Shown here one piece after another: positions 3,774 through 56,288 of a stretch of 64,000 nt of DNA. The translations under genes were made by a program, and so were the position numbers. Origin of the DNA: Okeania sp. SIO2F4 (lineage in GTDB: Bacteria > Cyanobacteriota > Cyanobacteriia > Cyanobacteriales > Microcoleaceae). Numbering within the stretch: position 1 is the first letter of the stretch; each line of letters starts with the position of its first letter. Location of the stretch: contig NZ_JAAHGT010000021.1 in NCBI RefSeq assembly GCF_010672385.1, positions 223 through 64,222 of the forward strand. Direction: 5' to 3'. Under the pieces are notes generated by a model, which worked only from the letters and a program-made list of their open reading frames with translations, was not told where the DNA came from and did not search any database.

Positions 3774-3890
3774 TGTGATGGATGATTCAGAAACACAGAA
3801 ACCAATAATTTTTTCACAAATGAAGATAATTCAATATAACAGTGAGTAAAACTTATGAAAAATACAAGTTATATATAGCAATTTCATTCA

Positions 3891-4490
3891 ATGGTAGCTA
3901 GTCTTAAAAATAACTCTGCTATTGATGTTTATCTATATAATTTTAATCCTCCAGCAACAAAAGAGGAATTAAATGAAGCGCAAAGCAAATTTAACCTTAC
4001 CTCGGCAATGATTGATTTTTATAGTGAAGCAAATGGTATCACTATTGAATGGGAAAAGCTAGGGAAAAAGGAAGTTCCGGAAGGAGGATTAATCGCTGGA
4101 TTGATTGATTTATTGCCAATTCAGGAAGTATTTAGGGATTGGAAAGATAATATTTATTTTGATGAAAATGATCCTTGTAAAGCATTACATCCCATAGACT
4201 ATTTTATTGGCAATGCTTGTGCAGGACTTTATTTAGATGGCTCAGATAATCCCGAAATCTATTATTACTATCGGGGTCGAAGAATTAGACCATTAGGTGT
4301 AGATTTCGAGGGCTATCTTCAACTGTTACTTAAATCTCGTGGTTTTTGGTATTGGCAACTAGCTATTGCTGGCCCTGAAGACATTGACCCTTCTGCAACT
4401 ATGTCCAGAGAAGAAAGAAACTTTCGAGAAATTATTCCACAGCTTTTTCCAGACTTTAATCAATCAGACTTTCAACGGCTAGAACAATGA
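3891..4490 (+). CDS. SMI1/KNR4 (SUKH)-like putative immunity protein
   Basis: 199-aa ORF immediately downstream of the toxin. Its N-terminal 'EELNEAQSKFNLTSAMIDFYSEANGITIEWE' fits the SUKH-1 pattern (ligand-question motif followed by 'nG'). The position is typical of an immunity gene. Confidence 0.5.
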   Translation: MVASLKNNSAIDVYLYNFNPPATKEELNEAQSKFNLTSAMIDFYSEANGITIEWEKLGKKEVPEGGLIAGLIDLLPIQEVFRDWKDNIYFDENDPCKALHPIDYFIGNACAGLYLDGSDNPEIYYYYRGRRIRPLGVDFEGYLQLLLKSRGFWYWQLAIAGPEDIDPSATMSREERNFREIIPQLFPDFNQSDFQRLEQ

Positions 4491-35464: not shown

Positions 35465-38400
35465 TCAGAAGGGTATTAACTCCTCTTCTGTTTCTGTCTG
35501 TTCAGCGTGTTGGGAAATAAAGTCTTCCCAACACGCTGTTGCTGCTTTTTCAATGGTGTCGTAGTATGGTCCGAAAACGTTGGTACTGACGTACCATTTA
35601 CCAAAACCAGCTTTGTTCTTGCTTTTATTGCAAATATGGATTTTTCCACATTTTTGTGTTCCGTTCCAGACTATATAAGTCTCACTCCGGTTATAAATAG
35701 AGCTATCTTTGACCCAATGTAGTCCTTCGGAATGTTCGTAACTATCAGTGTTTGACTCTTCTGTAGTTGTGGATGCCTTAAACTCATCAGAAGTTTGACT
35801 ATCAGTAGTATCATTGATAGCAGCATTATTCAATATGTCTTGCCAAGTGATAGTGTCATTGTTTTTGTGGCTGTCTTTAATTGTCTGCTCCCAAACGCTA
35901 TGGTCAACATAATCATTGATATCAACGCCTTGACCAGCTTCCAAGTCAGAACAGAGTTGATCTACGTCGATACCAAATAGTTCTTTCATGTTTGACTTCA
36001 ACTTGACAGTAGGGAACAGTGTGAAAGTTTTGCCATCTCTAGTTTGCATCAAACATGGGTAGAGGTTTTTATCTCCACGGTAAAACCAAAGTGTGGTTCC
36101 AGAGCGTTTAGTACGGATGTTGTCAAAAGCATTAAATACAGCAGCCAGTTTGTCTAACAAGTCTACTGGGGAATGTTCAGTGCTCTTTGTGTCTGCGTCG
36201 TTGTTTAATTGATTTGAGTCTGGCAGTTTTCCATTGCTCTTGCCAGGAATAGACTTTTTTGTGTGTTCTGAAGTTTGAGTATTTGTTACAACTGGTTTAG
36301 GGTGATAGAGTTGATAAGGAATATTCTCTGCTACTAAAAATGCTTCTAAGTCGCAGTCATATTTAGCTAATTCGCCAATTAATTTCTGTTCTATTTCTAG
36401 TTCATCGTCTTGGTTGTGATGTATGCTTCCTACATTTGTTCCGTAATGAGTTACAGTTAAATCTACCTCATCGTGGCTTGCCTTAAAGTCTTCTAATAAC
36501 TCAATTTCAGTTTTAATTAAATTAAGCCATGTTTGGTCATCGTACTCATCAAAAAAGTATGAAGCAATATTTTCAATTATTTCTGTGTCACCTTTAGTAG
36601 TGGTATTATTTTCAGGCTGTTTACGATAATTTTCTATCTGAAGTTGTTTACCATTGACTACATCTAGAATAAGTGCTTTTATATCTAACTCGTATCGTTC
36701 CATGAGTAATTTTTCTAAGCTAATATCGCTCACTAAACCTTTATGGGGGTCTGTAAATATACGACCTAAAATTTCATCTTTTAAAGATATATGCAGGGTT
36801 ATTTTAGGTATGCCTAAACTTCGTTCAAATTGAAATTTATCTATCATGGATAATTGTTTTTTTACTTTGTTAATTAGCTGTTCTTCTAAGCTGGTTTGAG
36901 TCTTTTTATGTTGTGATAATGATGATTTTTGGTATTCCTTATCAGGAATAAATTCAAACCGAATTACCCATACTATTTGTTGGTTATCGCCCTCAAAAAA
37001 TTTCCCAATAAATTGTTGTTTTGATAGTTCGGGAAAACCTTCTGCTGCTAATTCTGAAGATGGCATATCTACCAATTTCTCTTGGTAAGGTTTATGGGTG
37101 AGGCGGATGTAACCAACTCGCTTACCACCAACGTGATAACCTTTTGTCAGTGCAGGATAAAGAAATTTTCCTGGTCTGGCATTCCAGTCATCAATGAAGC
37201 GTTGGGCGTAGTTATCTTTCCAAAACCGTCGTGTGACTGTTTTGTTGCCTGAAAGTAGTTCAGTTAGGGTTTTGCCAAAACTTATTGCTTTGCCATTGAT
37301 GGTTAGGTTTTGTTCATTGATACTTAGAGTTGTTCCTGTTTCCTGCTCCTGTGATGGGATTTGGTCAACTTTTAGTACAGTTCTACTTTCAACAGTAGGT
37401 TCATCACCATTGCTTTCAGTTTGGTTATCAGTAGTGTCATTAGCATTGTTTACTGTATCAATTATCCTCTCTGTATCTGCTAGTTCCTCTGTGTTTAACT
37501 GAGTATTTGCGACTGTGGATAACCTTTGAGTGCTTGCAGCTACTATCAAACTACTAAAGTCAAGTGATGTCATACTTTCAGCGGTTGGTTCATCACTGTC
37601 TAAGTTGTCTGAACTGATTGCTGATACTTGACTACTCCCTAACTTGGTTAAGGGTTGAGCTGAAACATACCTTAGTAAGTTGATGTTTATGTGTTCGATA
37701 CCGTTATCCCCAAGTACTCCAGAGTCTAGCCATTGAATAGTCGCTATTTCTCCTGAGACTGACTGCAAAATGCCTCGGCGTTCACGTCCTTTTTCCCAAA
37801 TGGGTGCAACAACACATCCTCGTGGTTTGAGAGCGTTATTATTGCTGCCAATATATGCGAATGGATCTACATCACAGCTTGGATGTTTTGAGTTATAATG
37901 TATAGATTTTATTAATCCTTTGATGTCTATTCCGTAGGATGTTATTAGGTGAGAAACTAATTTTGATTCTGCTGATAATTTACCTTGATTTATTGTCACA
38001 AAACCAAGTTGAAAATGACCTTGGTAAAAAGCTATTTGAGAGCAATTTTTATCTAGTTGCAAGTCAGTTTTGTAAGAGTTTATTGCTGTTTCTAAGGTGT
38101 CTAAATGTTTTGTGTTTAACTCAGCCTCAATTCCACTATTATTGTTGGGGTTATTGGGAGTAGATGGTGGTGTTTTAGAACCTCCATTATTATCTGGATT
38201 ATCTTCATCATTTTCTATTGTTTGTTCAATTAATTCTTTACGTTGTTGGCGTAGAGTTTCTAGCAATTGATTCCAGGCTGGACTAAAGTCTACTAATTCA
38301 TTGAGTAGATTATTTGCAGTTTTAAAGTCTTCTTCATTCCAGTTATCCCAGTTTTCTTTGGTCAGTAATTCTTTGATAGTTTGGTTTGTAATAATGTAGT

Positions 38401-41356
38401 TGTCTGTTTCAATTTCGGTTTCACCTTTGACAATATCAGTGGTTAATTGATTGAGGAGGATTGAGTATTGATTCAAGAATTTATCAACCAAATTTTCATC
38501 TAATATGATTTCGGGTTCTGAATCTGGATTATTGACTGTAACGGAGCCTAAGTAGTTTTCTAGCCATTCTATGCCGTTGTATATTTTAAAAATTCTTCCT
38601 TGACGGATGATGACTAATCGAAATTTATTTTTAAATTTATTAGAGAGAGAATGAAGTGCGTTATGAAGAGTGTCTAGATGGTCGAATTCTTCATCTAAAC
38701 TGCCTATCCCCAAGAGGTAGTTATTAATTAATCCTTCATCTATTATTTCTTTATTGTTGATATCTTGTATCAATTCATCTATATTGATACTGTATGCTTC
38801 TTTGAGTAGTTGTTTTTCTCTTTCTGGTAGTTCTAATATTTCGTTATCTTTATAAAAAACTGTGCCAAATAGTTCTTTACCTCTTTGAATATATGCTGTA
38901 GATGAGTCATTTCTGACTATGGTTAAGTCAGTTTTGTAACTATTAATAATTTCGATAAATATTTCAAAATAATCAGTTGTATTAGTTGATTCAAACCACC
39001 ATTTTGCTCTTTCTAGGGCAGATTTTATGTCTTTGGCATTATTGGAAAATTCGGTTCCGTGACTGATTATGAAGGGAGTGTTACTGTAATTATGCAGTTC
39101 AGTGATTTTAACCCAATCACTGTTGTTATTGTCTGAAGAGTAGATTAATACTTGACTATCACCTACGGTTTCTATTACCCAATTTTCTAATAGTAAGGGG
39201 GTAATTTTTTCTGTGAGTGTTAATGTTTTTTCTACTTCTACTGGTTCAGATTCTACGCCTGATTCAATTTTATTACTGCTATTTTTGTTAGGATTAGGAG
39301 GATTTATGGATGGTTTTGTTACACTTTTTCGTTGTTCAAACCAACAGTAAATTAAATCTATGGCTGTCTCAATGTCTTGGTAGTGTATGGTATAGAGTAA
39401 TTCTTGGTTATGTCTAATATAAATGTCTCCAATTGTAGAATTACATAATTCGACATGATTGTTTTGGTGGTTTTTTTCTTTAATAATTACTTGGTTAAAT
39501 AAATGTTCTTCAAGTATCCATGTTGGGGGTAAGTATTGTTCAATTTTCTTGAAGAATGTTAATGTTTCTTGAGTCTTTTTTTTGTGCGTTACTTCTCCAT
39601 ATTTATTGAAGACTTGGCTAAATTTATCTACGTTTTCTCCCCAATAAACTAGACAATGTGACTGTCTTGCTGGTGATTTTGGTTTGTAGTTGCTGTCTAG
39701 GAATTTAATGCGCCCTTTCCAGAAACAGATGGGTTGACTCCACAGTGGCTCAAACCATTTGGTGTCTGTTGATGCTGTTAGTAAGGCGATCGCTTCTGTG
39801 ACGTTACTACTATCAATTTCTGAAATTAGTTTCTCTATCCATTTACCAGGACAGCTATAGGGTGGGTTGAGGAATACTTTCCCGTGCCATACACAACTGA
39901 GTCCGTCTTCTGTTATGGTTTTGTGGTATTTTGCTGGTATGTGTTTTTTGTCGTCGGCACAGGGATCTAAGTCAATTGTTCCGAGGACTTCTTCTATTAA
40001 TTCAACTATTTGTGGTGGTGTGTACCAACAGTCGGATGATTTGGAGGTGGTTTGAGTAGGGTTAGACTCACTAGCATTTTCTATCCTAGTGTCAAAGGTA
40101 GTTGCTATTTTGTCTATTTCTTCTTCGTTAGAATATGGTGATTCTTCTGTTGCTAAACCTTTCAATACTTGGGTAAAGGTGGCAGCATCACCGGAACAGT
40201 AGACTTGATTTTTGCCAGGGGCGATAAACCACCAACTATTGTTTTGATAACCTACTTCTGCTATTTTTTGGTCTTTGATATAGAAGAAACCAAAACTGGT
40301 AATATTGTCACTGGGGTATTGACAGAATTTACCTCCTATTTCAGTTGCAGCATTATGGAGTTCTTGCTTGAGACCACCATTTTCTTTGTTTGATGGATTA
40401 TTTTTAGTATTTTTCCACACTGCATCTATGAATTTTTGAGTGGTGGAATTAGTGTTTTTACTCCATTTTTTGGCGGTTTCTGATTTTTTGAGTCTGATTT
40501 CATAATCATCTTCTTTGACATCATAGAACACTTTAAAATATCTGTGTTCGTTATCTAGAATTACTTCGCCACTGGATGAGTCGTACCAGGTTATAGTAGG
40601 GTTGTTGTTATTACCTGCACTGGAAATCTTACTTATGTTTAAGGTAGAGGGAGCAGTATCGGAAATTTCAACCATGTCTGAGGTAGGGGGTGTCGGTACG
40701 TCTCCAGATTTTTCTATATGTGTAGAGTCGGTTTCGGCGTTGTTGTCGGAAGTAGTGTCGTTGTTGTTTTCTTCTTGTAAGGTTAGAATTATTATTCCAA
40801 GGTCTCCATCTGTTTCCTGTAAACTCCATTGATATAATTTTTCTTTTAATTCAATTGTTCCTGTAAAGTTGTTAGTTAATTGTGTGATTCTGGTGACTTC
40901 TGTCTCTGTTAGTGCCATTTCCCAAGTGGAGTCTGTTTCGTTGTATTTCCAACCTTTTGGGAAGGTTGAGGTTAGTTCAGTGATGATTTCTTTGATTGTT
41001 ATTGTGGGAGTTGGGTTGTTTTCGGGTTGTGGTTTTTCTATGGTTTGGTGGTTGTGTTTTTTTTGTCCGTCAGTAATTTCAATTACTCTTGATTTTGATG
41101 GTGGGGGTAATGCTAGTCCTAGTTGAGAGGCTATCGCCTTTTTGTACTCTGGATACTCAGCAAGTATTGGTAGTAGGGTATCTAATGCTCTGGAGATTTT
41201 GGTTGGTATTGACTGTAGTTCTTTTAGTTGAGATTTCTTTTGTTCTAACAGAGTTGTGAGAATGCTGATGCTGTCTTTTTTCTCTTTCTCTAACTGGCTT
41301 GTGAGAATGCTGATGAGGTCTTTTTCTTGTTGTTTGATAGCAGATGTGTTCATCAT
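35465..41356 (-). CDS. 1963-aa polyvalent-type protein: Dam-like N6-adenine methyltransferase, ASCH domain and at least five copies of an unrecognised ~55-aa module
   Basis: 'CWYTPPQIVELIEEVLGTIDLDPCAD...WHGKVFLNPPYS...GRIKFLD' is the phage Dam-type MTase pattern (NPPY at nt 39857-39868). 'ELLSGNKTVTRRFWKDNYAQRF...GYIRLTHKPYQEKLVDMPSSELAAEGF' is ASCH-like (nt ~36960-37300). The repeated module ends '...(Y/F)(G/S/E)(I/L)D(I/V)..L(I/C).D(I/L/V)'. Confidence 0.7.
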   Translation of the reverse strand: MMNTSAIKQQEKDLISILTSQLEKEKKDSISILTTLLEQKKSQLKELQSIPTKISRALDTLLPILAEYPEYKKAIASQLGLALPPPSKSRVIEITDGQKKHNHQTIEKPQPENNPTPTITIKEIITELTSTFPKGWKYNETDSTWEMALTETEVTRITQLTNNFTGTIELKEKLYQWSLQETDGDLGIIILTLQEENNNDTTSDNNAETDSTHIEKSGDVPTPPTSDMVEISDTAPSTLNISKISSAGNNNNPTITWYDSSSGEVILDNEHRYFKVFYDVKEDDYEIRLKKSETAKKWSKNTNSTTQKFIDAVWKNTKNNPSNKENGGLKQELHNAATEIGGKFCQYPSDNITSFGFFYIKDQKIAEVGYQNNSWWFIAPGKNQVYCSGDAATFTQVLKGLATEESPYSNEEEIDKIATTFDTRIENASESNPTQTTSKSSDCWYTPPQIVELIEEVLGTIDLDPCADDKKHIPAKYHKTITEDGLSCVWHGKVFLNPPYSCPGKWIEKLISEIDSSNVTEAIALLTASTDTKWFEPLWSQPICFWKGRIKFLDSNYKPKSPARQSHCLVYWGENVDKFSQVFNKYGEVTHKKKTQETLTFFKKIEQYLPPTWILEEHLFNQVIIKEKNHQNNHVELCNSTIGDIYIRHNQELLYTIHYQDIETAIDLIYCWFEQRKSVTKPSINPPNPNKNSSNKIESGVESEPVEVEKTLTLTEKITPLLLENWVIETVGDSQVLIYSSDNNNSDWVKITELHNYSNTPFIISHGTEFSNNAKDIKSALERAKWWFESTNTTDYFEIFIEIINSYKTDLTIVRNDSSTAYIQRGKELFGTVFYKDNEILELPEREKQLLKEAYSINIDELIQDINNKEIIDEGLINNYLLGIGSLDEEFDHLDTLHNALHSLSNKFKNKFRLVIIRQGRIFKIYNGIEWLENYLGSVTVNNPDSEPEIILDENLVDKFLNQYSILLNQLTTDIVKGETEIETDNYIITNQTIKELLTKENWDNWNEEDFKTANNLLNELVDFSPAWNQLLETLRQQRKELIEQTIENDEDNPDNNGGSKTPPSTPNNPNNNSGIEAELNTKHLDTLETAINSYKTDLQLDKNCSQIAFYQGHFQLGFVTINQGKLSAESKLVSHLITSYGIDIKGLIKSIHYNSKHPSCDVDPFAYIGSNNNALKPRGCVVAPIWEKGRERRGILQSVSGEIATIQWLDSGVLGDNGIEHININLLRYVSAQPLTKLGSSQVSAISSDNLDSDEPTAESMTSLDFSSLIVAASTQRLSTVANTQLNTEELADTERIIDTVNNANDTTDNQTESNGDEPTVESRTVLKVDQIPSQEQETGTTLSINEQNLTINGKAISFGKTLTELLSGNKTVTRRFWKDNYAQRFIDDWNARPGKFLYPALTKGYHVGGKRVGYIRLTHKPYQEKLVDMPSSELAAEGFPELSKQQFIGKFFEGDNQQIVWVIRFEFIPDKEYQKSSLSQHKKTQTSLEEQLINKVKKQLSMIDKFQFERSLGIPKITLHISLKDEILGRIFTDPHKGLVSDISLEKLLMERYELDIKALILDVVNGKQLQIENYRKQPENNTTTKGDTEIIENIASYFFDEYDDQTWLNLIKTEIELLEDFKASHDEVDLTVTHYGTNVGSIHHNQDDELEIEQKLIGELAKYDCDLEAFLVAENIPYQLYHPKPVVTNTQTSEHTKKSIPGKSNGKLPDSNQLNNDADTKSTEHSPVDLLDKLAAVFNAFDNIRTKRSGTTLWFYRGDKNLYPCLMQTRDGKTFTLFPTVKLKSNMKELFGIDVDQLCSDLEAGQGVDINDYVDHSVWEQTIKDSHKNNDTITWQDILNNAAINDTTDSQTSDEFKASTTTEESNTDSYEHSEGLHWVKDSSIYNRSETYIVWNGTQKCGKIHICNKSKNKAGFGKWYVSTNVFGPYYDTIEKAATACWEDFISQHAEQTETEEELIPF

Positions 41357-41465: not shown

Positions 41466-42176
41466 TTATTGAACTAGGTGGAAAGATTTAGCGACTTGAA
41501 AGTTGTGAACGTGCAGCACTACTTTTAAGGCGTTCTCTATGTCTGCAAAGTAATCTACAGGTTGAAACGGGCGACGCAGGGCAAATTTTCCGATGTTACC
41601 GTGTCGCCAGATTTCTGCTACTTTTTCTCCGTTTTGCGATAGCTCTATTCGGAAATCATTAAGGTTAACTTCACTTATTTTTAGGCTAGTGCTAGCGATC
41701 GCCGTATTAACTATCTCAAATAATTTCCGGTTGTTGGCAACTGTTCTGTCTTCAGCAGGTAACGAGCGCTCATAGACAGTCTTTGCTGCTAAGATATGCT
41801 TGCAGAGCATCCGGCTATTGTCGTAATAATTGTGATATTTGTGGTCGGGACAGGTGCAGGTCCATTCTCCATATTCTAGAGTTACCACATAGTCTGTATT
41901 TTTTTTGGGATTACTGACTATGGCTTTGAAGTCGTAGTTGGTGTTGACTGGCCTGACTTTTAATCCTTTGCTTCGCTCTAGTCTTTCTATTTGAGCGATC
42001 GCTTGGTTGAATACTTGCTCTAGGTAGTGGGCTACTTGGCAGTAGAGTTGGACTTCTTGATGCCAGCCGGGGATTTCTGAGCATTTGATGTGGACGATGC
42101 CGAGAACATTTTCGTAAAATGTCTCTCGTGCCGACTTGACATCATGGCCAAGTCGGTCTATTATTGTTGTTAGCAT
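41466..42176 (-). CDS. SWIM zinc-finger protein
   Basis: 'EWTCTCPDHKYHNYYDNSRMLCKHILAA' matches the CxCx(n)CxH SWIM signature. Confidence 0.65.
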   Translation of the reverse strand: MLTTIIDRLGHDVKSARETFYENVLGIVHIKCSEIPGWHQEVQLYCQVAHYLEQVFNQAIAQIERLERSKGLKVRPVNTNYDFKAIVSNPKKNTDYVVTLEYGEWTCTCPDHKYHNYYDNSRMLCKHILAAKTVYERSLPAEDRTVANNRKLFEIVNTAIASTSLKISEVNLNDFRIELSQNGEKVAEIWRHGNIGKFALRRPFQPVDYFADIENALKVVLHVHNFQVAKSFHLVQ

Positions 42177-46765: not shown

Positions 46766-47650
46766 ATGACAAATCATAAATTTAATTTGCCTAACTTTGA
46801 GAAAGCAGAAGATTTGCTTAATGATTTATTTGAAGAAGTAAAAAGTAAGGAAAGTGAATTAGCGGGAGGAGAAGCTCAAGAGTTAAAAAGAGGAGCAACT
46901 GCAATTCAAAGATTGAAGGAAACTACTGTTACATTTGGCAATCCTCGTAGTAAATTAATTCCTCTTACTGAAAAAGGTTTTGAAGCAAAAGGAGTGGAAT
47001 TAAATTACGAAATTAAGCAGTTAATGAAGCAGTTTGATTTCTATTCTATGGTTGTGAGCATTGATATAAGACCTCAACCAAGTGTTTTGATTTCAAAATT
47101 AGAATGTCAGCTTGATTTTGGTCCTCAAGGAAAAGACGAGCCAATAGTGCATCGTATTATCCCAGATAGTAAATGGCAAACGGTATTAAAGACAGGAGTC
47201 AACTTGAATTTAGGACTAGATGCCAATTTAGAAGTGGGAGTTGGAGTTGATGTTTCTGAGTTAACAAAAATAGCTAATCTTCCTGATTATGACAACTTAA
47301 AAGCTAATATAGAGACTAAAGATGAACTTAAAGCATTTATTATTTTAGATAGCTTAAATTATAAATTTGGTAAGTTTAATCTTTTGGCTCAAGGAGAAGA
47401 TAACTCTCAGTGTTACTGGCGAATTGAAGAACCATAAATTCAGGATAAATCTACAGTTGAATTTGACATTATTTTTAAAGTTCCTAAGACATGGGAGTAT
47501 ATTGATTTAATTGGTAATGCATGGATTGAACCAAAGATTGATTGGCTTAATGGCGAATTAAATCATGTAATGACAGCTTTATCAAGTCGTTTAAAAAATG
47601 TGTTTGGGAGTCAAGAGAAAGCAGCTAAGAGTTATGCAGTTGGGATAAAA
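46766..47650 (+). pseudogene. Unknown beta-rich protein upstream of the CHAT protease, interrupted by an in-frame TAA at 47435-47437
   Basis: The 223-aa ORF ends '...SQCYWRIEEP*'. The same frame stays open for 70 more protein-like codons (IQDKSTVEFDIIFKVPKTWEYIDLIGNAWIEPKIDWLNGELNHVMTALSSRLKNVFGSQEKAAKSYAVLG*). Confidence 0.5.
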
Positions 47651-47755
47651 GAAGAATGGATTGGTGAAAAGCAAATTATCTTGCCTAAACCGTAGATGTT
47701 TTAGTTCTTTATATTTTATTATTATTAATTTCTGTCAATTTCAGATTTAAGTCTA

Positions 47756-49147
47756 ATGACAATGAATGAATATTTTTATCAGATTATTGTCCCCAATGAT
47801 AATATGGTTAGAGTGAGAAAATTAACTCCTCAATCAACCGACCCAGAACAGACAACGGGAAAGTTAAATCTCACTAAAATCAATGATAAGATTAGAGAAA
47901 TTATTAAAGCTCCTGCTAACTTAGAAGCTGGAAAAATCACTAAAGTGGGAGAAGCTTTATTTGAGGCTTTGTTTGACGGTCAATTAAGAGAAGATTTTTT
48001 AGCATACTATCAAGAAATTGTTAAAAAACAACAACAAATATTAGCAGTTATTTTGGAAATAAATGAGGAAGCAATGCCAGAAGTGGTAGCCTATCCTTGG
48101 GAGTTAATGTGTTTACCTCAGAAATATAATCAGGGTGAAATTTATTTCGCAACTGACCGTAAATTAAGCTTTTACCGCTGTCGATATCAATTAGAAGAAT
48201 CAGCAAAACTATCTATTAAAATTAATCAAGGTGAACAGTTAAAAATTGCTTTAGTTGTCTCTAAACCAACAGGTGATTCTCAATTAAGTAATGTAGAGTA
48301 TCAGGAAGTACAGCAATACTTAAAACTTGTAGATAGTCAACAAGAGCAAGTAAAATTTATGCCTGTTATGGATTCTCTGAATTTTTATAGTATTGTAGAA
48401 AAATTAGAAGCAGATAAACCGGATATTTTTCATTTTATTGGTCATGGTCAATTAGTTGAGAAAGAAGGAGAAGATGTAGGGCAGGTTGCTTTTGTTAATG
48501 AGTTTGGTCAAGCTGATTGGAAAGATGCTAGGATGTTTGGTCAATTGTTTAGTGGTCACACACCTAAAATTGTCATTTTACAAGCTTGTGAAACAGGAAA
48601 GCAATCTGAAACTAATGCTTTTAGTGGTGTTGCTTCTCGCTTAATGCAGCAAGGAATTTCAATAGTTGTAGCAATGCAATATAAGGTTTCTAATCAAACA
48701 GCAATTACTTTTGTTAAAGAGTTTTATTCAAAAATAATTGAAGGTAATTCTGTTGAGATGGCATTGCAGAAAGCTCGGTTTAAACTAGGTATTGAAAATG
48801 GGTATAAGCGAAGAGATTTTGCGATTCCTGTGGTATATATTAATGCTTTAGATGGCTATTTATTTACTTCAGAAGTAAATTCAGTTTCTCCAGTTGCCAA
48901 TAATGATCTCATAGCCAATAATTCTAGCAATTCTAGACTAAATTCGTTACGAAGACAAAAAGAAGAATTGGAAGAGCAAATAGCAGTTTTGGAAAATCTC
49001 CGCAATAATTGTCATCAACAACTTAAAGGAGAGGGGGATAGTGATAAAAGAGAGCAGCTAAGAGTCAAAATGAAAAATTACTTGAAGGAAATTGAGGTTC
49101 TATATGATGAGATAGATAACATCGAAAAAAAAATCAATCAAATTTAG
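47756..49147 (+). CDS. CHAT-domain (caspase-fold) protease with a C-terminal coiled-coil adaptor module
   Basis: 'PDIFHFIGHGQL' (His codon 48443-48445) and 'KIVILQACETGK' (Cys codon 48587-48589) form the caspase-like His/Cys dyad in CHAT spacing. The C-terminal ~70 aa are heptad-like and are duplicated in the next gene. Confidence 0.75.
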   Translation: MTMNEYFYQIIVPNDNMVRVRKLTPQSTDPEQTTGKLNLTKINDKIREIIKAPANLEAGKITKVGEALFEALFDGQLREDFLAYYQEIVKKQQQILAVILEINEEAMPEVVAYPWELMCLPQKYNQGEIYFATDRKLSFYRCRYQLEESAKLSIKINQGEQLKIALVVSKPTGDSQLSNVEYQEVQQYLKLVDSQQEQVKFMPVMDSLNFYSIVEKLEADKPDIFHFIGHGQLVEKEGEDVGQVAFVNEFGQADWKDARMFGQLFSGHTPKIVILQACETGKQSETNAFSGVASRLMQQGISIVVAMQYKVSNQTAITFVKEFYSKIIEGNSVEMALQKARFKLGIENGYKRRDFAIPVVYINALDGYLFTSEVNSVSPVANNDLIANNSSNSRLNSLRRQKEELEEQIAVLENLRNNCHQQLKGEGDSDKREQLRVKMKNYLKEIEVLYDEIDNIEKKINQI

Positions 49148-49192
49148 TTAAATCTTTAATTATATGTATGTATTAATAATTTAATTACTAAG

Positions 49193-50262
49193 ATGTCAGA
49201 TAGTCAAAAATTGGAAAGTTGGAAAAAGGAAAAAAAAGAATTAGAAGAACAAATAGCAGTTTTGGAAAATCTCCGCAATAATTGTCATCAACAACTTAAA
49301 GGAGAGGGGGATAGTGATAAAAGAGAGCAGCTAAGAGTCAAAATGAAAAATTACTCGAAGGAAGTTGAGGTTCTATATGATGAGATAGATAACATCGAAA
49401 AAAAAATCAATCAAATTCAGTTAGATGACAAAAGCTTGAGTCCAAACGATCATTTAGACAATCCTAACAATCAGCAACAGTTAAAATTTGATGAGTGTTT
49501 GCCTTATATCGATTTTGATAAAGCTTTAAATGCTTTTAAAAAAATTATGGCTAAGTTAAATGGAGAAGGAGATGTTGCTTTATTCCTCATTGAAGAAAAT
49601 AATGATAAGGAGGGAAATTTATTTTTAAGAAGACTGAGGAATGATTTAGCTTCTAATAGTTACAGGCAACATTTTCGTCTCTGTCATTCAACATATACTT
49701 CTGGTAATTTTGAAGGATTAATCAAAGGAATAGGTGAATTTTTAAACGTCACAAAAGAAGAAATTACTAATTAGTTATTAATAAAATAAGTGATTCTTTA
49801 CAAAATAATTCGTTTTTGTTTATAGAAATCAACTGTGATATTCTTGACCCAAGTGACATCGACTCATTCATTCCCAAGTTTATTAATTTTTTTTGGAAGC
49901 CTTTGAGAGAAAAAGTAAATGAAGTAGCTAAGGATTATAAAGGAATTAAAGTTGTAGCTGTAATAATTTCTGATATATTACTTAATTCCAGATTTTCAAA
50001 AGAGGAATTATCCTGCTATTATAATCGTTCTCTGAGGGTCTTTTCTAGGGATAAATTAGTCAAAATACCTTTAGAAAAATGGACACAGACAGATATTGCG
50101 AGATATTTGAGATGTGCTAATTCTAGTTTAAAAACACCGGAAGTAAACAGCATCGCTAAAAAAATTTATAATGCAACCAATAAAGGATCGCCTACAAGTA
50201 TCTGTAGAGCTTTAGAACAAGAAAAATGGCAAACTTTAATATATCCAACCCGTACCTGTTAA
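49193..50262 (+). pseudogene. Adaptor-module protein split by a frameshift (49193-49774 plus 49771-50262); a candidate VMAP/iSTAND-like partner of the MoxR-vWA pair
   Basis: The N-terminus repeats the CHAT C-terminal module (166/168 nt identical). The first frame stops at 49772-49774. The second frame is open from 49771 ('LVINKISDSLQNNSFLFIEINCDILDPSD...') but has only a TTG start at 49816. Confidence 0.5.
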
Positions 50263-50268
50263 ACAATT

Positions 50269-51261
50269 ATGGATTCAAGCATGACTTACCATTTTGAAAA
50301 CAACCCTAAAAAACGTCCTTCTAAACCTCATCCTGATTCACCTACAAAAGTTGAACCTTATATTGCACCTGATGAGTTAATTGATGCAGTAAATTTAGCT
50401 ATTTTTCTGCGTCGCCCCCTATTATTAGAAGGAGAAGCAGGTTGTGGTAAAACTCGATTACCAGTTGCAGTTGCTTATGAATTAGGATTACCATTCTATC
50501 GTTGGGATATTCGCTCAACTACGAAAGCACAAGAAGGTTTATATGAATATGATGCTATTCTTAGACTTCACGATGTTCAAACTCAAAAATTAGAAACAGA
50601 AAATAATAATACCAGAAATCCCAGTAATCCTGAAGATTATCGAAGTTTTGGAGCAATTGGTAATGCTTTTCGTTCAAAAGATTGTCCGGCAGTAGTTTTA
50701 ATTGATGAAATAGATAAAGCTGATATAGATTTTCCTAATGATTTACTAACAGTTTTAGATGAACCTTGGGAGTTTAAAATTAGAGAAACTGGAGAAACAA
50801 TTACTGCTGAAACTAATTGTCAACCTATTGTAATTATTACCAGTAATAAAGAGAAAGGAAATTTACCAGCTCCATTTCTACGTCGTTGTATTTATTATTA
50901 TCTGAAATTTCCGGAGCAACCTGAGCAACTTCAAAAAATTGTTGATATTCACTATCGATATAAACAAGAGTCAGAAGTTCCAGAAAAAATCAATACTCCA
51001 CATAATGAATTAGTACAACAAGCAGCTAAACTATTTATTAAAATTCGAGCCAACAAAGGATTGTTTAAAATTCCAGGGACAAGCGAATTTTTAGATTGGT
51101 TAGATGCACTTTGCAGTTGTCAAACAAAGCAAAATCCTAAGCCTCCTTATCCTATTAATGAGTTAGAAGAAGAAAAATTAATTCCTTATCGAGAGTTAAT
51201 ATTTAAAATTCGTCAAGATTGGCAAAAAAATACAACTTTTCCTCAACTTAGTGATTCATAA
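50269..51261 (+). CDS. MoxR-type AAA+ ATPase (AAA_5-like)
   Basis: Walker A 'LLLEGEAGCGKT' (nt 50431-50454), Walker B 'VVLIDEIDKAD' (nt 50691-50720) and 'PAPFLRRC' sensor/arginine region, in a single AAA+ module of ~330 aa. Confidence 0.75.
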   Translation: MDSSMTYHFENNPKKRPSKPHPDSPTKVEPYIAPDELIDAVNLAIFLRRPLLLEGEAGCGKTRLPVAVAYELGLPFYRWDIRSTTKAQEGLYEYDAILRLHDVQTQKLETENNNTRNPSNPEDYRSFGAIGNAFRSKDCPAVVLIDEIDKADIDFPNDLLTVLDEPWEFKIRETGETITAETNCQPIVIITSNKEKGNLPAPFLRRCIYYYLKFPEQPEQLQKIVDIHYRYKQESEVPEKINTPHNELVQQAAKLFIKIRANKGLFKIPGTSEFLDWLDALCSCQTKQNPKPPYPINELEEEKLIPYRELIFKIRQDWQKNTTFPQLSDS

Positions 51262-51318: not shown

Positions 51319-52386
51319 ATGTTTGAACCTAATTCTTATTTAACTACTCTTTTTTACCGTTTGCGTGAAGGCGGTTTTAATTTGAGTATTAGGGAATATT
51401 TTTCAGTAAAAGATGCAATAAAAGGAGGTTGGGGAACTAAAAGTAAAGAAGACTTTAAAAAACTCTTACGCTTGCTATGGTGTAACTCTTGGGAGCAACA
51501 ACAGCATTTAGCTGTAATATTTGATACTATTGTCATTGAACCGGAAAAAACTGAAGAAACAACACCAAATCAACCTCCAAAAATTCAAAAAACTGGGAAT
51601 TATGACCAATTTGACTCAGATTCATCAACTCCTACTTTTCCTACTACACCAATTGAACCCTCTTCAATAGAAATAACTAAACCAGCGACTGAGAAGTTAT
51701 CGCCATTACCCGTTACTAACCCTCAACTAATACAAGAATATCAAGATGATGCCGAATTTTATACTTATTATCCCATTTCTCGCCGTTCTATGGTTTATAG
51801 TTGGCGATATTTACGTCGCCCCATTGCTGACGGAGTTAAGGATGTTTTGGATATCAAAATGACCGTAGAAAAAGCTACAAAACAAGGATTTTTCTTACAA
51901 CCTGTTTACCGTCGGCGAGAAAAAAATCATGCTCATTTACTAATTTTAGTAGATCAGGAAGGTTCGATGACTCCCTTTCATCATTTCAGTCGAGACTTAG
52001 TAGAAACAGCTCAATATGAAAGCTCTATAGAAAGAGTAGATGTTGCTTATTTTCATAATTTGCCAGCAGAATACATTTATCAAGATCGTTTCTTAACCGA
52101 TAAAATTGCCTTAGAAACTGTTTTAAATCAATGTGATAGTGAAACTAGAGTTTTAATCGTTAGTGATGGGGGTGCTGCTAGGGGATATCGTCACCGAGAA
52201 AGAGTTTCAGCAACAACTGAAGTAATTTGGGAAATTCAACAACAGACTAATCTAATAGCATGGCTCAATCCTGTTCCTCAACTACGTTGGAATAATACTA
52301 CAGCTAGTATTATTTCTCATTTAGTACCAATGTTTTCTATGAATGAAGAGGGTTTAAGACAAGCTATTATGACGTTGCAAAGATAA
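51319..52386 (+). CDS. vWA-domain protein with a degenerate MIDAS motif, partner of the MoxR ATPase
   Basis: 'HLLILVDQEGSMTPF' sits at the DxSxS position (D-Q-E-G-S; Asp codon 51952-51954). 'VLIVSDGGA' is a later vWA strand. The helical N-terminal domain and the gene order after MoxR are typical. Confidence 0.65.
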   Translation: MFEPNSYLTTLFYRLREGGFNLSIREYFSVKDAIKGGWGTKSKEDFKKLLRLLWCNSWEQQQHLAVIFDTIVIEPEKTEETTPNQPPKIQKTGNYDQFDSDSSTPTFPTTPIEPSSIEITKPATEKLSPLPVTNPQLIQEYQDDAEFYTYYPISRRSMVYSWRYLRRPIADGVKDVLDIKMTVEKATKQGFFLQPVYRRREKNHAHLLILVDQEGSMTPFHHFSRDLVETAQYESSIERVDVAYFHNLPAEYIYQDRFLTDKIALETVLNQCDSETRVLIVSDGGAARGYRHRERVSATTEVIWEIQQQTNLIAWLNPVPQLRWNNTTASIISHLVPMFSMNEEGLRQAIMTLQR

Positions 52387-52754: not shown

Positions 52755-55700
52755 ATGGTTCAATTTCAAATTAAAGCAGATAGCGATATTCCTGCCTCAA
52801 ACCAATTATTTAATCAAATTCGAGCTGCCATAGCCTCCCGTCAGTTTCCTCCTGGCTATCGATTACCCAGTACGAGACAACTTGCGATGCAAACTGGTTT
52901 GCATCGCAATACTATAGCTAAGGTATATCGTCAACTAGAAGATATTGGTCTTGTGGAAGCTCTAGCAGGTAAGGGGATTTATGTCAAAGCTCAAGGTGAT
53001 GAGGGGTCGAAGTTAACATCTCCTATGAGTAACAGATATCCAGATATAGAAATGACTGAAATAACAGATGAAATTATAGCTCAGAATAAAGTAGAGCGAT
53101 TTCAAATTAAAGCAGATAGCGATATTCCTGCCTCAAACCAATTATTTAATCAAATTCGAGCTGCCATAGCCTCTCGTCAATTTCCTCCTGGTCATCGATT
53201 ACCCAGTACGAGACAGCTTGCCAACCAAACTGGTTTACATCGCAATACTATAGCTAAGGTATATCGTCAACTAGAAGATATTGGTCTTGTGGAAGCTTTA
53301 GCAGGTGAGGGGATTTATGTCAAAGCTCAAGGTGATGAGGGAGGGCCGAAGTTAACATCTCCTACGAGTAACAAATATCCAGATATAGAAATGACTGAAA
53401 TAACAGATGAAATTATAGCCCAGAATAAAGTAGAGCGATTTGTCAGTCGCTTTGAGTCTTCCTATGAATTGTTAGCTTGTCATGTAGCTTTACCTCTAGT
53501 ATTAACTCCAGAATTAGTTAACTATCTTAGAATTGAGTTTCTCAAAAGTGAAAAAGTTCCTTGGATTGCTGAAGCTGATTTATTGTTATCTAATCTATGT
53601 CGTCCAGTTGGTTATGAACTCTATGTAATGGATGAAGGAGTGAGAGCTTATTTACTACAAAAACTAGCACAAGACAAAAGATTTGGTCAGAAAAGAATTA
53701 AAGAGATTGCCCGTTTATTACTGAGTTATGTTCAGCATTTAGCTAAAACTAATCCTTTTCTGGGAATGAAAGAGTTAGAAACTCAGAAATGGGGAGCAAT
53801 GTTATATTTAGACACAGAGCAAACTGTCCGAGAAATAGGTACAGCTATATGTGAATGTGTAGATCGAGCAGAATTGGCTCGTTTACTCAAAATTACTGAA
53901 GACTTTAAACAACAAATAGCTTCATCAGGCCAGTTTCAGGATTTTTTAGATTATGCTCAACTTTGTAGTGAGTTACTTAGAGAACCTGAAAAAGTTAAAC
54001 TAGAACAAATCGCAGACTCATATCAGGTAGCAGGACTTGAATTAAGTGTACCAGAAAGTATTAACATCTCAATACTAGATTTTCTTAACTTAGACAATTT
54101 AGAGTCGTTTGAATTTACAGCTAAAGTTGGTAATATTGTTAAATTAAAAACTATTTTATTAGTTGAAGACGAACAAGAAGTAATCCAAGAAGTATCAAAA
54201 AAATTATCATCCCAATATGGCATTACCGTCAGAGGAACAGATAGTGTCAATGAAGTTATTCAATTAGCAGAATCAGGTGAAATTGACTTGATTTTAATTA
54301 ATTATTGGTTACCTAATAGTAGCTATCAAGACAGACCAGTTAATGGGTTTGAAATTATCAGGATTTTGAAGGCTAATTCTGATATTTATCCGAGCTTACC
54401 TATTGTTGGTTTCTCCTCTAATATTAAAAGGTTTTTACCTCTGAATTTAGTTGATGAATTTGTTAAAAGTGGTGCAAATGGTTTTTATTATAAGAAAGAA
54501 TTGTTGCTTAATAATGATTATCAAAAGTTCGTTAACTATCTCGAAGAAATATTTGCTCAAGCTCTTGAAAATACATCCTCTCAACCAGGAAAGAATTACG
54601 GTATCCTCATTGGCATTAACCAATATAACCATCTACCAACCCTCCGATACGCGGTTACAGATGTAGACGAAATAAAGGCTCGATGTGAGTTCCAAAACTT
54701 CAGTAAAGTTGACTTATTTTCAGATGTAACTTCGGTAAAAGTCAAGGAATTTTTGGCAGAGAAATTTGAGCAGCCATTTCTATCAACAGAGGATAATTTG
54801 TGGTTTTTCTTTAGTGGCCACAGTCGGTTAAGGCAAGGTGTAGACTATCTGATGTTAGTAGATAGTAAAACTGAGGAAATCACAGAAACAGCCATTTCTG
54901 TTAATTCTCTTGTAGAACAACTTTTTTCTTCAGGTGCGGGAAAGGTAATCTTGTATCTGGATATGGATAGATTATCAGGAGATGCTTCTTCCACCTCTAG
55001 TTATCTTTTACCAATTAAAAATTATCAGGGACTTATAGTTTTCTATGCTTGCGAACCTAATACCGCAGCTTATGAAATTGAGCAACTTCAGCAGGGAAGC
55101 TTTAGTTATGCTTTATATGAAGCCTTATTGTCAACCCAAGGAAACTTAAGTATAAATCAACTTGAGAAGTTTTTGATTGATCGCGTTCCTGAACTTAACC
55201 AACAAAATAATCAACAGACGCAAACCCCACAAACATTTATTTCTCCTAGCAACCTGGCAGAATGGGTTCCCTTTCCTTCAGATTTGCAGGTTTTTCAGCA
55301 CACAACACCAACAGTTAATCGACAGGGAGAAACTATTAGGCAAAATACTAAGCTTGCCCAATATTTCACTGAAATTCTTGCAGATGGCATTAACCTAGAA
55401 ATGGTAGCTATTCCTGGTGGTACTTTTACAATGGGGTCTCCTGAAAGCGAAAAAGATAGTAGAGACAGAGAACGTCCCCAACATGATGTAACTGTTCCTC
55501 CCTTCTTTATGGGCAAATATCCCATTACTCAAGGACAGTGGAGAGCGATCGCCTCTCGAACAGACTTAAAAGTAGACCTAGATTTAAACCCAGACCCATC
55601 TGATTTTAAAGAACTATATCAAGGTATAGATAGATGGAAGAGACCAGTGGAGAATGTAAATTGGTATGAGGCAGTAGAATTTTGTGAAAGACTCTCGAAA

Positions 55701-56288
55701 CTAACTCGAAAGAATTATAGACTACCAAGCGAGGCCGAATGGGAATATGCGTGTCGTGCTGGAACGACTACACCCTTTCACTTTGGAGAAACTATCACAG
55801 GAGACTTAGCTAATTACGATGCGTCAAGAATTTATGCTGATGAACCAAAAAGACAATATAGAAAAGAAACTATCCTTGTAGGTCAATTCCCTCCCAATGC
55901 CTTTAGATTATATGATATGCACGGAAATGTATGGGAATGGTGTGCGGATGACTGGCATAATAATTATAAAAATGCTCCTACTGATGGGATAGCTTGGCTT
56001 GATAGTAATAAAAGGGAAAATATGAATAATAGACCTCTCCAGGAACCAAGGTCTGAAAACTTTTTCAAAAGGATGAGAAATACAGTATCAAATATTTTTA
56101 ATCAAAATGAACCAGAGCCTAGGAGTAATGATAATGATGAAAAAGAAAAGTATACCGTGCTGCGTGGCGGCTCCTGGGTCAGCTATCCTCATGACTGCCG
56201 TTCCGCGTGTCGCTACTTCAACCTTAGGCGCGGCAACCACATCATCACTGTTGGTTTTCGTATTGTGTGTGGTGGCGGGAGTGAATGA
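52755..56288 (+). CDS. 1177-aa multidomain protein: 2x GntR-type wHTH, helical domain, receiver-like domain, caspase-like domain, C-terminal FGE-sulfatase (SUMF1-like) domain
   Basis: 'PSTRQLAMQTGLHRNTIAKVYRQLEDIGLVE' occurs twice (GntR HTH). 'ILLVEDEQEV...DLILINYWLP' is REC-like. 'YGILIGINQY...AVTDVDE...FFFSGHS...LYLDMDRLSG...VFYACEPN' is caspase-like. 'IPGGTFTMGSPE...RPQHDVTV...NVNWYEAVEFC...YRLPSEAEWEYACRAGT...HGNVWEWC...LRGGSW...CRSACR' is FGE-sulfatase. Confidence 0.75.
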   Translation: MVQFQIKADSDIPASNQLFNQIRAAIASRQFPPGYRLPSTRQLAMQTGLHRNTIAKVYRQLEDIGLVEALAGKGIYVKAQGDEGSKLTSPMSNRYPDIEMTEITDEIIAQNKVERFQIKADSDIPASNQLFNQIRAAIASRQFPPGHRLPSTRQLANQTGLHRNTIAKVYRQLEDIGLVEALAGEGIYVKAQGDEGGPKLTSPTSNKYPDIEMTEITDEIIAQNKVERFVSRFESSYELLACHVALPLVLTPELVNYLRIEFLKSEKVPWIAEADLLLSNLCRPVGYELYVMDEGVRAYLLQKLAQDKRFGQKRIKEIARLLLSYVQHLAKTNPFLGMKELETQKWGAMLYLDTEQTVREIGTAICECVDRAELARLLKITEDFKQQIASSGQFQDFLDYAQLCSELLREPEKVKLEQIADSYQVAGLELSVPESINISILDFLNLDNLESFEFTAKVGNIVKLKTILLVEDEQEVIQEVSKKLSSQYGITVRGTDSVNEVIQLAESGEIDLILINYWLPNSSYQDRPVNGFEIIRILKANSDIYPSLPIVGFSSNIKRFLPLNLVDEFVKSGANGFYYKKELLLNNDYQKFVNYLEEIFAQALENTSSQPGKNYGILIGINQYNHLPTLRYAVTDVDEIKARCEFQNFSKVDLFSDVTSVKVKEFLAEKFEQPFLSTEDNLWFFFSGHSRLRQGVDYLMLVDSKTEEITETAISVNSLVEQLFSSGAGKVILYLDMDRLSGDASSTSSYLLPIKNYQGLIVFYACEPNTAAYEIEQLQQGSFSYALYEALLSTQGNLSINQLEKFLIDRVPELNQQNNQQTQTPQTFISPSNLAEWVPFPSDLQVFQHTTPTVNRQGETIRQNTKLAQYFTEILADGINLEMVAIPGGTFTMGSPESEKDSRDRERPQHDVTVPPFFMGKYPITQGQWRAIASRTDLKVDLDLNPDPSDFKELYQGIDRWKRPVENVNWYEAVEFCERLSKLTRKNYRLPSEAEWEYACRAGTTTPFHFGETITGDLANYDASRIYADEPKRQYRKETILVGQFPPNAFRLYDMHGNVWEWCADDWHNNYKNAPTDGIAWLDSNKRENMNNRPLQEPRSENFFKRMRNTVSNIFNQNEPEPRSNDNDEKEKYTVLRGGSWVSYPHDCRSACRYFNLRRGNHIITVGFRIVCGGGSE
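52764..53438 (+). repeat. In-frame tandem duplication (336-bp unit) of the GntR-wHTH module
   Basis: 52764-53099 and 53100-53438 are near-identical at DNA level (tttcaaattaaagcagatagcgatattcctgcctcaaaccaattatttaatcaaattcgagctgcc...), with a 3-nt indel and scattered substitutions. Confidence 0.9.

Follow-up and report, generated by a model that had tools for sequence, protein, structure and literature searches.

Paired EAD9-like modules on adjacent CHAT peptidase and iSTAND genes of an Okeania locus, probably kept matched by episodic recombination

Among described bacterial conflict systems the closest counterpart of the locus considered here is the iSTAND ternary system, made up of a MoxR-vWA pair and an inactive STAND protein that frequently carries an N-terminal effector-associated domain, or EAD (Kaur, Burroughs, Iyer and Aravind 2020, eLife, PMC7159879). 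An adjacent gene bears a second EAD copy, fused to a peptidase or a nucleotide-signalling enzyme; the copies of adjacent genes tend to be closest relatives, and homotypic coupling between them was predicted by analogy with Death/CARD domains (PMC7159879). In the same scheme EAD9 is one of those EADs whose partners are ‘signalling’ components, peptidases for instance, and not terminal effectors; of the effector domains in iSTAND systems, the FGE-sulfatase (FGS) domain occurs most often (PMC7159879). Here we analyse such a locus in a 64,000-nt stretch (the window) of Okeania sp. SIO2F4, contig NZ_JAAHGT010000021.1, in which a CHAT peptidase gene ends, and the neighbouring iSTAND gene begins, with nearly the same DNA; coordinates are window positions unless another locus is named. 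We consider it quite probable that these repeats are paired copies of an EAD9-type domain in an iSTAND-MoxR-vWA conflict (immunity or cell-suicide) system, matched to each other by episodic gene conversion or unequal crossing-over. Both the architecture and the EAD principle are already published; our addition is evidence, at the level of DNA, on what keeps the two copies alike, and the terms ‘gene conversion’ and ‘concerted’ are absent from the text of PMC7159879.

Copy A of the module, an EAD9-like helical hairpin at the CHAT C-terminus, occupies 48950-49144 (+ strand) and forms the last 65 codons of a 463-aa CHAT open reading frame (ORF) at 47756-49147. Copy B, the corresponding hairpin at the iSTAND N-terminus, occupies 49223-49417 (+) and forms codons 11-75 of the ORF at 49193-49774. 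A sequence-only reading of the window had reported that their cores, 48977-49144 and 49250-49417, agree at 166 of 168 nt and that the two differences change Leu to Ser and Ile to Val, and on both counts it was right: position 49083 is T where 49356 is C (TTG Leu, TCG Ser), and 49091 is A where 49364 is G (ATT Ile, GTT Val). No synonymous difference occurs within the 168-nt core, and the longest perfect run is 106 nt. The offset between copies is 273 nt, a multiple of 3, with in-register similarity extending over 48957-49153 and 49230-49426 (190/197 nt, blastn E = 3e-91); beyond this block, in-register identity is at background, at 6-15 of 30 nt. Separating the two genes is an intergenic spacer of 45 nt (49148-49192, +) that has no similarity to the module and is identical in the corresponding locus of a Trichodesmium sp. 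metagenome-assembled genome (MAG), L001. Searches of the 64-kb window with tblastn and blastn found no third copy of the module (no further match at E < 1). Read-through of stop codons joining the two same-frame ORFs was considered and is unlikely, with 1-3 in-frame stops between them at every locus.

The genes around the repeats make up an iSTAND ternary system as described by Kaur et al. 2020 (PMC7159879). A gene for a MoxR-clade AAA+ ATPase (50269-51261, +; Pfam AAA, AAA_5 and AAA_2) adjoins one for a CoxE-type vWA protein (51319-52386, +; Pfam VWA_CoxE, E = 5e-10), and the third component has an iSTAND domain, recognised in the first part, 193 codons, of the EAD9-iSTAND gene (49193-49774, +; Pfam iSTAND, E = 9e-5, model positions 3-94 of 163). 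This ORF scores 23.3 bits against PF19995, for which the cut-off is 24, and the match is limited to the N-terminal half of the model because the window gene is frameshifted. The CHAT (caspase-like) peptidase with its C-terminal EAD9-like tail (47756-49147, +; Pfam CHAT, E = 8e-23, residues 63-344) has His and Cys motifs, ‘HFIGHG’ and ‘LQACE’, that are invariant across 38 homologues, and Foldseek matches of its core include separase, SAVED-CHAT, the Craspase TPR-CHAT and caspase-9. Like the published systems, the locus brings together an EAD-tagged peptidase, an EAD-iSTAND protein, MoxR, a CoxE-type vWA protein and FGS proteins, has a small all-alpha domain and resides in multicellular cyanobacterial hosts; unlike them, it has FGS on separate genes and not fused to the vWA protein, its Pfam scores are borderline, and it is damaged (PMC7159879). 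The published account also differs in what it covers, in that here the pair is 99% identical in DNA, and among its relatives there are conversion tracts, one pair with 100% identity and a tandem array. PADLOC returned no system-level match for the iSTAND protein, the vWA protein or a ~305-aa protein encoded upstream of CHAT.

Assignment of the module itself probably lies with EAD9 (Pfam PF19962, ‘effector-associated domain 9’; model length 62, gathering threshold 25 bits), judging from profile scores at that threshold. EAD9 is the only other Pfam match in both repeat-bearing proteins, at E ~1e-3, with 19.0 bits for the CHAT protein and 20.4 bits for the iSTAND ORF, and copy B alone reaches E = 2.8e-5 over model positions 8-62 of 62. 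When modules were scanned singly, EAD9 was the best Pfam family for 14 of 14 from seven loci (best E = 3.7e-6). An AlphaFold2 (AF2) model of the CHAT protein, built on a 38-sequence alignment (mean pLDDT 88), has the CHAT core followed by a disordered linker at 374-390 and by helices at 393-425 and 429-462, which turn at ‘GEG’ and have block-mean pLDDT of 82-96 (94-96 at residues 401-460). The module is thus predicted to be a helix-turn-helix hairpin of ~65 residues, flexibly tethered to the end of the CHAT core. The sequence-only reading had called it a coiled coil; its helical nature is borne out, but the model replaces one long coiled coil with a hairpin. These properties agree with how the EAD class is drawn, as small, non-enzymatic and mostly all-alpha domains (here two AF2 helices in ~65 residues), with a copy on a terminus of the core protein and a copy on an adjacent enzyme (here 45 nt apart, with the same layout in nine further loci), and with adjacent-gene copies closest to each other, as we found in 7 of 9 non-redundant loci.

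Two other families of small adaptors resemble this arrangement in part. In gasdermin defence, CARD-containing proteases activate a cell-death effector and need a small helical adaptor to do so (Wein et al. 2023 preprint, PMC10312443). Bacterial CARD-like and Death-like (bDLD, EAD3) adaptors share with our locus a small helical adaptor on a protease within a multi-gene immune operon, and are the experimentally supported precedent for recruiting bacterial proteases through adaptors; they differ in being six-helix bundles with an NLR-like ATPase core, whereas here we have a predicted two-helix hairpin, an iSTAND/MoxR/vWA core and no gasdermin (PMC10312443). Neither Death nor CARD was matched in Pfam scans of the modules and carrier proteins, and the six-helix Death fold is not the one predicted for the module. 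In paired amyloid motifs (fungal HET-s/NWD2, bacterial BASS), as here, an effector-side C-terminal sequence is repeated at the N-terminus of an adjacent STAND/NLR-type gene. BASS motifs are some 20-25 residues long. They are beta-forming, prion-like and connect a Bell-domain protein with an NLR; in place of a short beta-prone motif on such carriers, we find a module of 62-65 residues, confidently predicted as helical, that would link a CHAT peptidase to a presumably inactive STAND protein. In multicellular actinobacteria and cyanobacteria, highly similar BASS pairs were identified in neighbouring genes that are collinear, by a search requiring at least 15 aa (Dyrka et al. 2020, bioRxiv 10.1101/2020.01.06.895854).

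Related loci were obtained by look-ups of CHAT homologues and by scans of genomes and metagenomes with an iSTAND alignment; the scans yielded 4 and 5 loci respectively, several of them redundant, and because they returned so few the sample is small (nine non-redundant loci). We compared ten loci: the Okeania window, L001, L002 (Calothrix rhizosoleniae), L009 (Trichodesmium MAG_R02), L010 (Xenococcus, as is L016) and, from metagenomes, L003 (with L004), L005, L015, L017 and L019. In 10 of 10 the upstream enzyme gene has the module and so does the iSTAND gene, and it aligns without gaps over 58-62 codons. The sequence-only reading had held that a module confined to one gene in related genomes would speak for a strain-specific accident, and no such locus was seen among the ten. 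The iSTAND protein is intact in L001 (364 aa), L002 and L003, where the homologues measure 357-364 aa and have a precomputed PF19995 match, and also in L009 (361 aa) and L010 (374 aa), where it was identified without a Pfam scan. The MoxR gene keeps its position in L001-L003, L009, L010, L015 and L017, and the vWA gene is syntenic in L001 and L002.

At first sight 99% identity over 168 nt at a spacing of 273 nt looks fresh, and might suggest a recent duplication particular to this strain, or an assembly artefact, without function. The comparative data refute this, and we regard it as very improbable. L001 is an independent assembly, 93% identical to the window in nucleotide sequence overall, and it has both copies with the same Leu/Ser and Ile/Val differences; the pair is therefore no assembly artefact. 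The module is found on both genes in ten loci from four genera as well as metagenomes. A simple tandem duplication of a 273-nt unit is rejected, since the 76 nt between copies and the flanks lack in-register similarity and were not duplicated, and 5′ of the identical block lies a stretch that is homologous between copies but diverged.

The enzyme carrying the module varies from locus to locus. Heads include CHAT domains of two clades (~40% identical to one another), a trypsin-like domain (L009) and a TIR/DUF4062-like domain (L010), and the tail still matches the local iSTAND protein. Conversely, close CHAT homologues (75-81% identical) found in other contexts have entirely different tails, namely other EADs, FGE-sulfatase, SIR2-like and VMAP-C domains. 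A single protein in which CHAT is directly fused to iSTAND, P0117, is without the module (hhalign probability 0.3%), as would be expected if the module stands in for a covalent link; no CHAT-module-iSTAND fusion was found among 140 CHAT homologues. A fused ancestor or deletion product of that composition was accordingly rejected as a candidate, P0117 being the sole fusion and lacking the module. In the loci of P0062 (a CHAT protein for which a faint EAD9 match had been precomputed) and P0056, L012 and L013, the partner is a CHASE2 protein, and tail and partner N-terminus are ~30% identical (E = 2.7e-7 and 0.036). These pairs are matched but old, and so were left out of the pairing statistics.

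Taken with the EAD9 top match in 14 of 14 modules, the CHAT and iSTAND carriers and the presence of the module on both genes in ten loci, the absence of the module from the P0117 fusion fits, at the level of sequence, the suggestion of the sequence-only reading that the module is an adaptor of the effector-associated type. On this account the hairpins would bind each other, for example in a four-helix bundle or a higher-order assembly, and their pairing would dock the CHAT peptidase on the iSTAND scaffold without covalent fusion. The MoxR/vWA chaperone pair might then license iSTAND assembly, by which docked CHAT molecules would be gathered and activated; we infer this binding and activation scheme from the sequence comparisons.

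It is also conceivable that the hairpin serves only CHAT-CHAT and iSTAND-iSTAND oligomers, with no docking between the two proteins, and that the likeness of the copies comes from conversion of neighbouring repeats. Dimerisation is what activates caspase-like peptidases, the fold matches of the CHAT core include caspase-9, recombination between the repeats clearly occurs, and at 97% identity A-A, B-B and A-B contacts are indistinguishable from sequence. However, self-association alone would not lead one to expect that the tail tracks the iSTAND partner and not the enzyme, with three unrelated enzyme types bearing a locally matching tail while CHAT proteins as similar as 75-81% have quite different ones in other contexts, nor that the one covalent fusion dispenses with the module, as expected if the module replaces fusion. 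We hold this alternative to be improbable. Together with its relatives, the locus is a compact system in which to test the docking account, with a hairpin of 65 residues, cognate pairs that are 77-100% identical and three enzyme heads that meet the same socket. This is of wider interest since EAD coupling, the proposed counterpart of Death/CARD coupling, is a central and so far purely computational idea on how interchangeable enzymes are recruited in large bacterial conflict systems.

How do the copies remain matched? Over the 62-codon module, nucleotide identity between A and B within seven loci is 97, 97, 86, 84, 90, 77 and 85%, compared with 59-70% between clades, and the proportion of synonymous sites that differ (pS) is 0.06-0.33 within a locus against 0.5-0.7 between clades. 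When 58 codons were compared across all ten loci, identity within a locus was 77-97%, and the Okeania and L015 types were 56-71% identical to all other loci. In amino acids, Okeania-type and L002-type hairpins are 42-47% identical. The cognate copy is the best match in the 7 of 9 non-redundant loci mentioned above (permutation p <= 1e-5). The sequence-only reading had proposed comparing other strains for co-variation of the copies, and cognate copies do co-vary, synonymous sites included. Since synonymous sites are homogenised too, DNA exchange is involved in addition to any selection on the protein. Pure co-evolution of the proteins, with no DNA exchange, has in its favour that homotypic interfaces favour identical sequences and that locus-specific substitutions are common to both copies. 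It is contradicted by the synonymous data (no difference in the Okeania core, 222/222 nt identical in L011, and the pS values just given) and by identity that comes in tract-like, sharp-edged runs, and we find it scarcely credible.

Footprints of recombination are seen at several loci. In the window, the identical block has a sharp 5′ edge within a longer stretch that is homologous in protein and diverged in DNA: ‘SRLNSLRRQKEELEEQ’ of copy A aligns with ‘QKLESWKKEKKELEEQ’ of copy B, and the 60 nt upstream are identical at 27 of 60 positions. L017 and L019 are close relatives, and the centre of copy B in L017 equals that of its copy A, while copy B in L019 differs at ~12 positions; in the same two loci the E/R codon of ‘EID[E/R]LY’ switches jointly in both copies. 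At L011, the CHAT tail and the N-terminus of the next gene share a helical stretch identical at 222/222 nt (2390-2614 and 2694-2918 of that locus), which is unrelated in sequence to the Okeania module; the neighbouring protein has 656 aa and no Pfam match. At L009 the interval from the trypsin-EAD9 gene to the EAD9-iSTAND gene (2286-4000 of that locus; 1.7 kb, mostly ORF-free) consists of module units in a tandem array, with a period of ~258 nt, 5.5 copies, 86% matches and runs of the heptamer TGTTAGG at 2413-2536 and 2707-2784. The array looks like the product expected of unequal crossing-over between A and B.

Concerted evolution of nearby paralogous segments by gene conversion is familiar from bacterial tuf genes and rRNA operons, for example. 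What we see is like it in the sharp-edged identity blocks of nearby paralogues, the homogenised synonymous sites and the arrays from unequal exchange. It is unlike the usual case in that the converted tract is a protein-protein adaptor common to two different genes, and homogenisation therefore bears directly on pairing specificity. Episodic gene conversion or unequal crossing-over of direct repeats would keep each pair matched and ‘private’, while the pairs of different loci diverge; gene conversion and unequal exchange would in this way be a mechanism for maintaining pairing specificity. The idea in the sequence-only reading that gene conversion keeps the copies matched is supported for the family, as far as sequence comparison goes, by the synonymous co-variation, the L017/L019 footprint and the 222/222-nt identity in L011; its suggestion that conversion may be ongoing needs correcting to the extent that homogenisation is episodic.

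That last point follows from one of several observations that weigh against our preferred account or limit it. Okeania and L001 share both A/B differences, so there has been no homogenisation since their split; read from these alignments, homogenisation is episodic and not continuous, and the last event in the Okeania lineage predates the split from its nearest sequenced relative. Between L003 and L010, orthologous copies are more alike (A-A 87%, B-B 91%) than are the two copies within either locus (84-85%). The EAD9 scores are at or below the gathering threshold (25 bits, where whole proteins reach 19-20 bits and copy B by itself 24.2), the same module sequences have weaker matches to generic coiled-coil families, and a profile of the 14 modules matched the tail of P0062 over 16 columns only, which is not significant (E = 0.057). 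Finally, two genes of the locus are disrupted in the window, and the pairing may have no current function here.

Comparison of the window with L001 also reveals an island of low divergence. Over 48920-49441, which takes in copy A, the spacer and copy B, there are 2 differences in 522 nt and 0 of ~75 synonymous sites have changed. The flanks have diverged, with pS of 0.15 in the preceding CHAT segment, 0.23-0.26 in iSTAND (where the ratio of nonsynonymous to synonymous divergence, pN/pS, is 0.55-0.84) and 0.08-0.09 in MoxR and vWA. At a pS of ~0.09, some ~7 synonymous changes would be expected in the two modules, and the probability of none is ~1e-3. Either the island passed between lineages at a later date than its flanks, or constraint acts on its synonymous sites.

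The near-invariant island and the swapping of enzyme heads feed a more speculative reading in which the repeats are mainly a homology cassette, by which effector heads and iSTAND bodies are swapped among loci and strains. The L003 (CHAT) and L010 (TIR-like) tails share 87-89% identity and those of L005 (CHAT) and L009 (trypsin) 87%, with unrelated heads in both cases. The tandem array of L009 would also suit such a role, as would reading frame: in the six loci with adjacent iSTAND genes that were compared for it (window, L001, L002, L003, L005 and L010) the A-to-B offsets are 273, 273, 267, 264, 291 and 264 nt, all multiples of 3, and the enzyme and iSTAND genes share a frame with 1-3 in-frame stops intervening. 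Unequal exchange between A and B could delete or amplify the 273-nt unit, and deletion would give an in-frame CHAT-EAD9-iSTAND fusion. No fused product of that kind was present among the 140 CHAT homologues, however, and L011, with an offset of 304, departs from the shared frame. Moreover, a recombination role complements the adaptor reading without excluding it, and leaves a conserved, folded hairpin unexplained; as the main explanation of the repeats we think it distinctly improbable.

A combination of the two, as plug and socket, is possible though doubtful. Episodic conversion and unequal crossing-over would re-match copies that have drifted, and so keep the hairpin pair private to each locus; such private matching would insulate the many paralogous conflict systems of a genome from cross-talk. 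The same repeats would also be joints where one enzyme head (CHAT, trypsin-like or TIR-like) or iSTAND body could be traded for another among loci and lineages, and the island at 48920-49441 would be a trace of such an exchange.

Not all components of the iSTAND-MoxR-vWA system are intact in the window, which bears on function here and not on membership of the family. Relative to L001, a 13-nt deletion splits the iSTAND gene at ~49766-49771. The first part ends at a TAG created by the frameshift, and the C-terminal half continues in another reading frame at 49771-50262 (+), where ‘LVINKISDSLQNNSFLFIEINCD...’ aligns to the C-terminal half of intact iSTAND proteins. The split gene may be either a pseudogene or an assembly error; its 193-aa product is identical to a protein listed as hypothetical in Okeania sp. 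SIO2F4. The gene upstream of CHAT has an in-frame TAA at 47435-47437, reading ‘RIEEP*IQDKSTV’ where homologues have ‘RIEEPEIQDKSTV’, with Glu at the position of the stop. In addition, the CHAT stop codon TAG reads TAC in L001, making the L001 protein four residues longer. Given the iSTAND frameshift and the upstream nonsense codon the system is probably inactive in the window and, to judge by these lesions, probably decaying in this strain, unless the disruptions are sequencing errors. The locus can accordingly be annotated as an iSTAND ternary system, apparently decaying.

The gene with the nonsense codon encodes a conserved cyanobacterial protein of ~305 aa with no family assignment (46766-47695, +), traced by tblastn with homologues from L002, L003, L011, L012 and L013, which align to 46766-47689 in one frame at 39-77% identity. 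Homologues lie at L002 7004-7933, L003 3263-4180, L011 204-1124, L012 4036-4953, L013 866-1783 and L019 733-1704, always just upstream of this type of CHAT, whether the downstream partner is an iSTAND protein, a CHASE2 protein or of unknown type. The protein had no match in Pfam, PADLOC or PDB sequences. Its AF2 model has a mean pLDDT of 72.6, with low confidence at 134-204, and in a Foldseek search 49 of the 50 PDB matches listed were beta-pore-forming toxins of the alpha-hemolysin, leukocidin, NetB, CytK and VCC kinds (E = 2e-6 to 1e-3, with TM-scores of only 0.2-0.3); the odd one, at rank 37, was a collagen-binding protein. The low-confidence stretch has an alternating hydrophobic pattern, ‘GVNLNLGLDANLEVGVGVDVS’, like that of a pre-stem. 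On the strength of this model we tentatively suggest that the protein may be a pore former activated by CHAT, following a gasdermin-like logic. Nothing was found when the literature was searched for cyanobacterial CHAT proteins that have leukocidin-like partners.

Downstream of the vWA gene, the island ends in two FGS genes. The first (52755-56288, +) encodes a GntR-GntR-receiver-caspase-like-FGE/sulfatase (FGS) protein (Pfam GntR, Response_reg and FGE-sulfatase; PADLOC caspase), whose L001 orthologue bears Peptidase_C14; it is likely an effector or sensor gene of the same island. The second (56396-57256, +) encodes a stand-alone FGE-sulfatase protein (Pfam FGE-sulfatase, E = 3e-60), and L002 has a comparable FGS gene pair after its vWA gene. 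FGS genes are typical targets of diversity-generating retroelements, and a gene for bAvd, an accessory protein of these elements, lies downstream of the iSTAND system at L003 9328-9669 and L004 7741-8082. Within the first FGS gene, whose product has 1177 aa, 52763-53102 and 53099-53441 form an in-frame tandem duplication of the N-terminal GntR helix-turn-helix segment (243 nt at 95% and 106 nt at 93%, spacing 336-339 nt); in the orthologue of the Trichodesmium MAG the segment is apparently single-copy, as judged from overlapping blast segments.

Elsewhere in the window, a 1963-aa ORF at 35465-41356 (- strand) contains a Dam-type N6-adenine methyltransferase domain (residues 434-565) and is followed by a SWIM zinc-finger ORF at 41466-42176 (-); the two may be another defence or mobile-element module adjoining the iSTAND island. 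Within a 1491-aa ORF at 6551-11026 (-), the region 9350-10011 has short matches exactly 216 nt apart (9350, 9566, 9782 and 9998), a spacing that suggests tandem 72-residue repeats.

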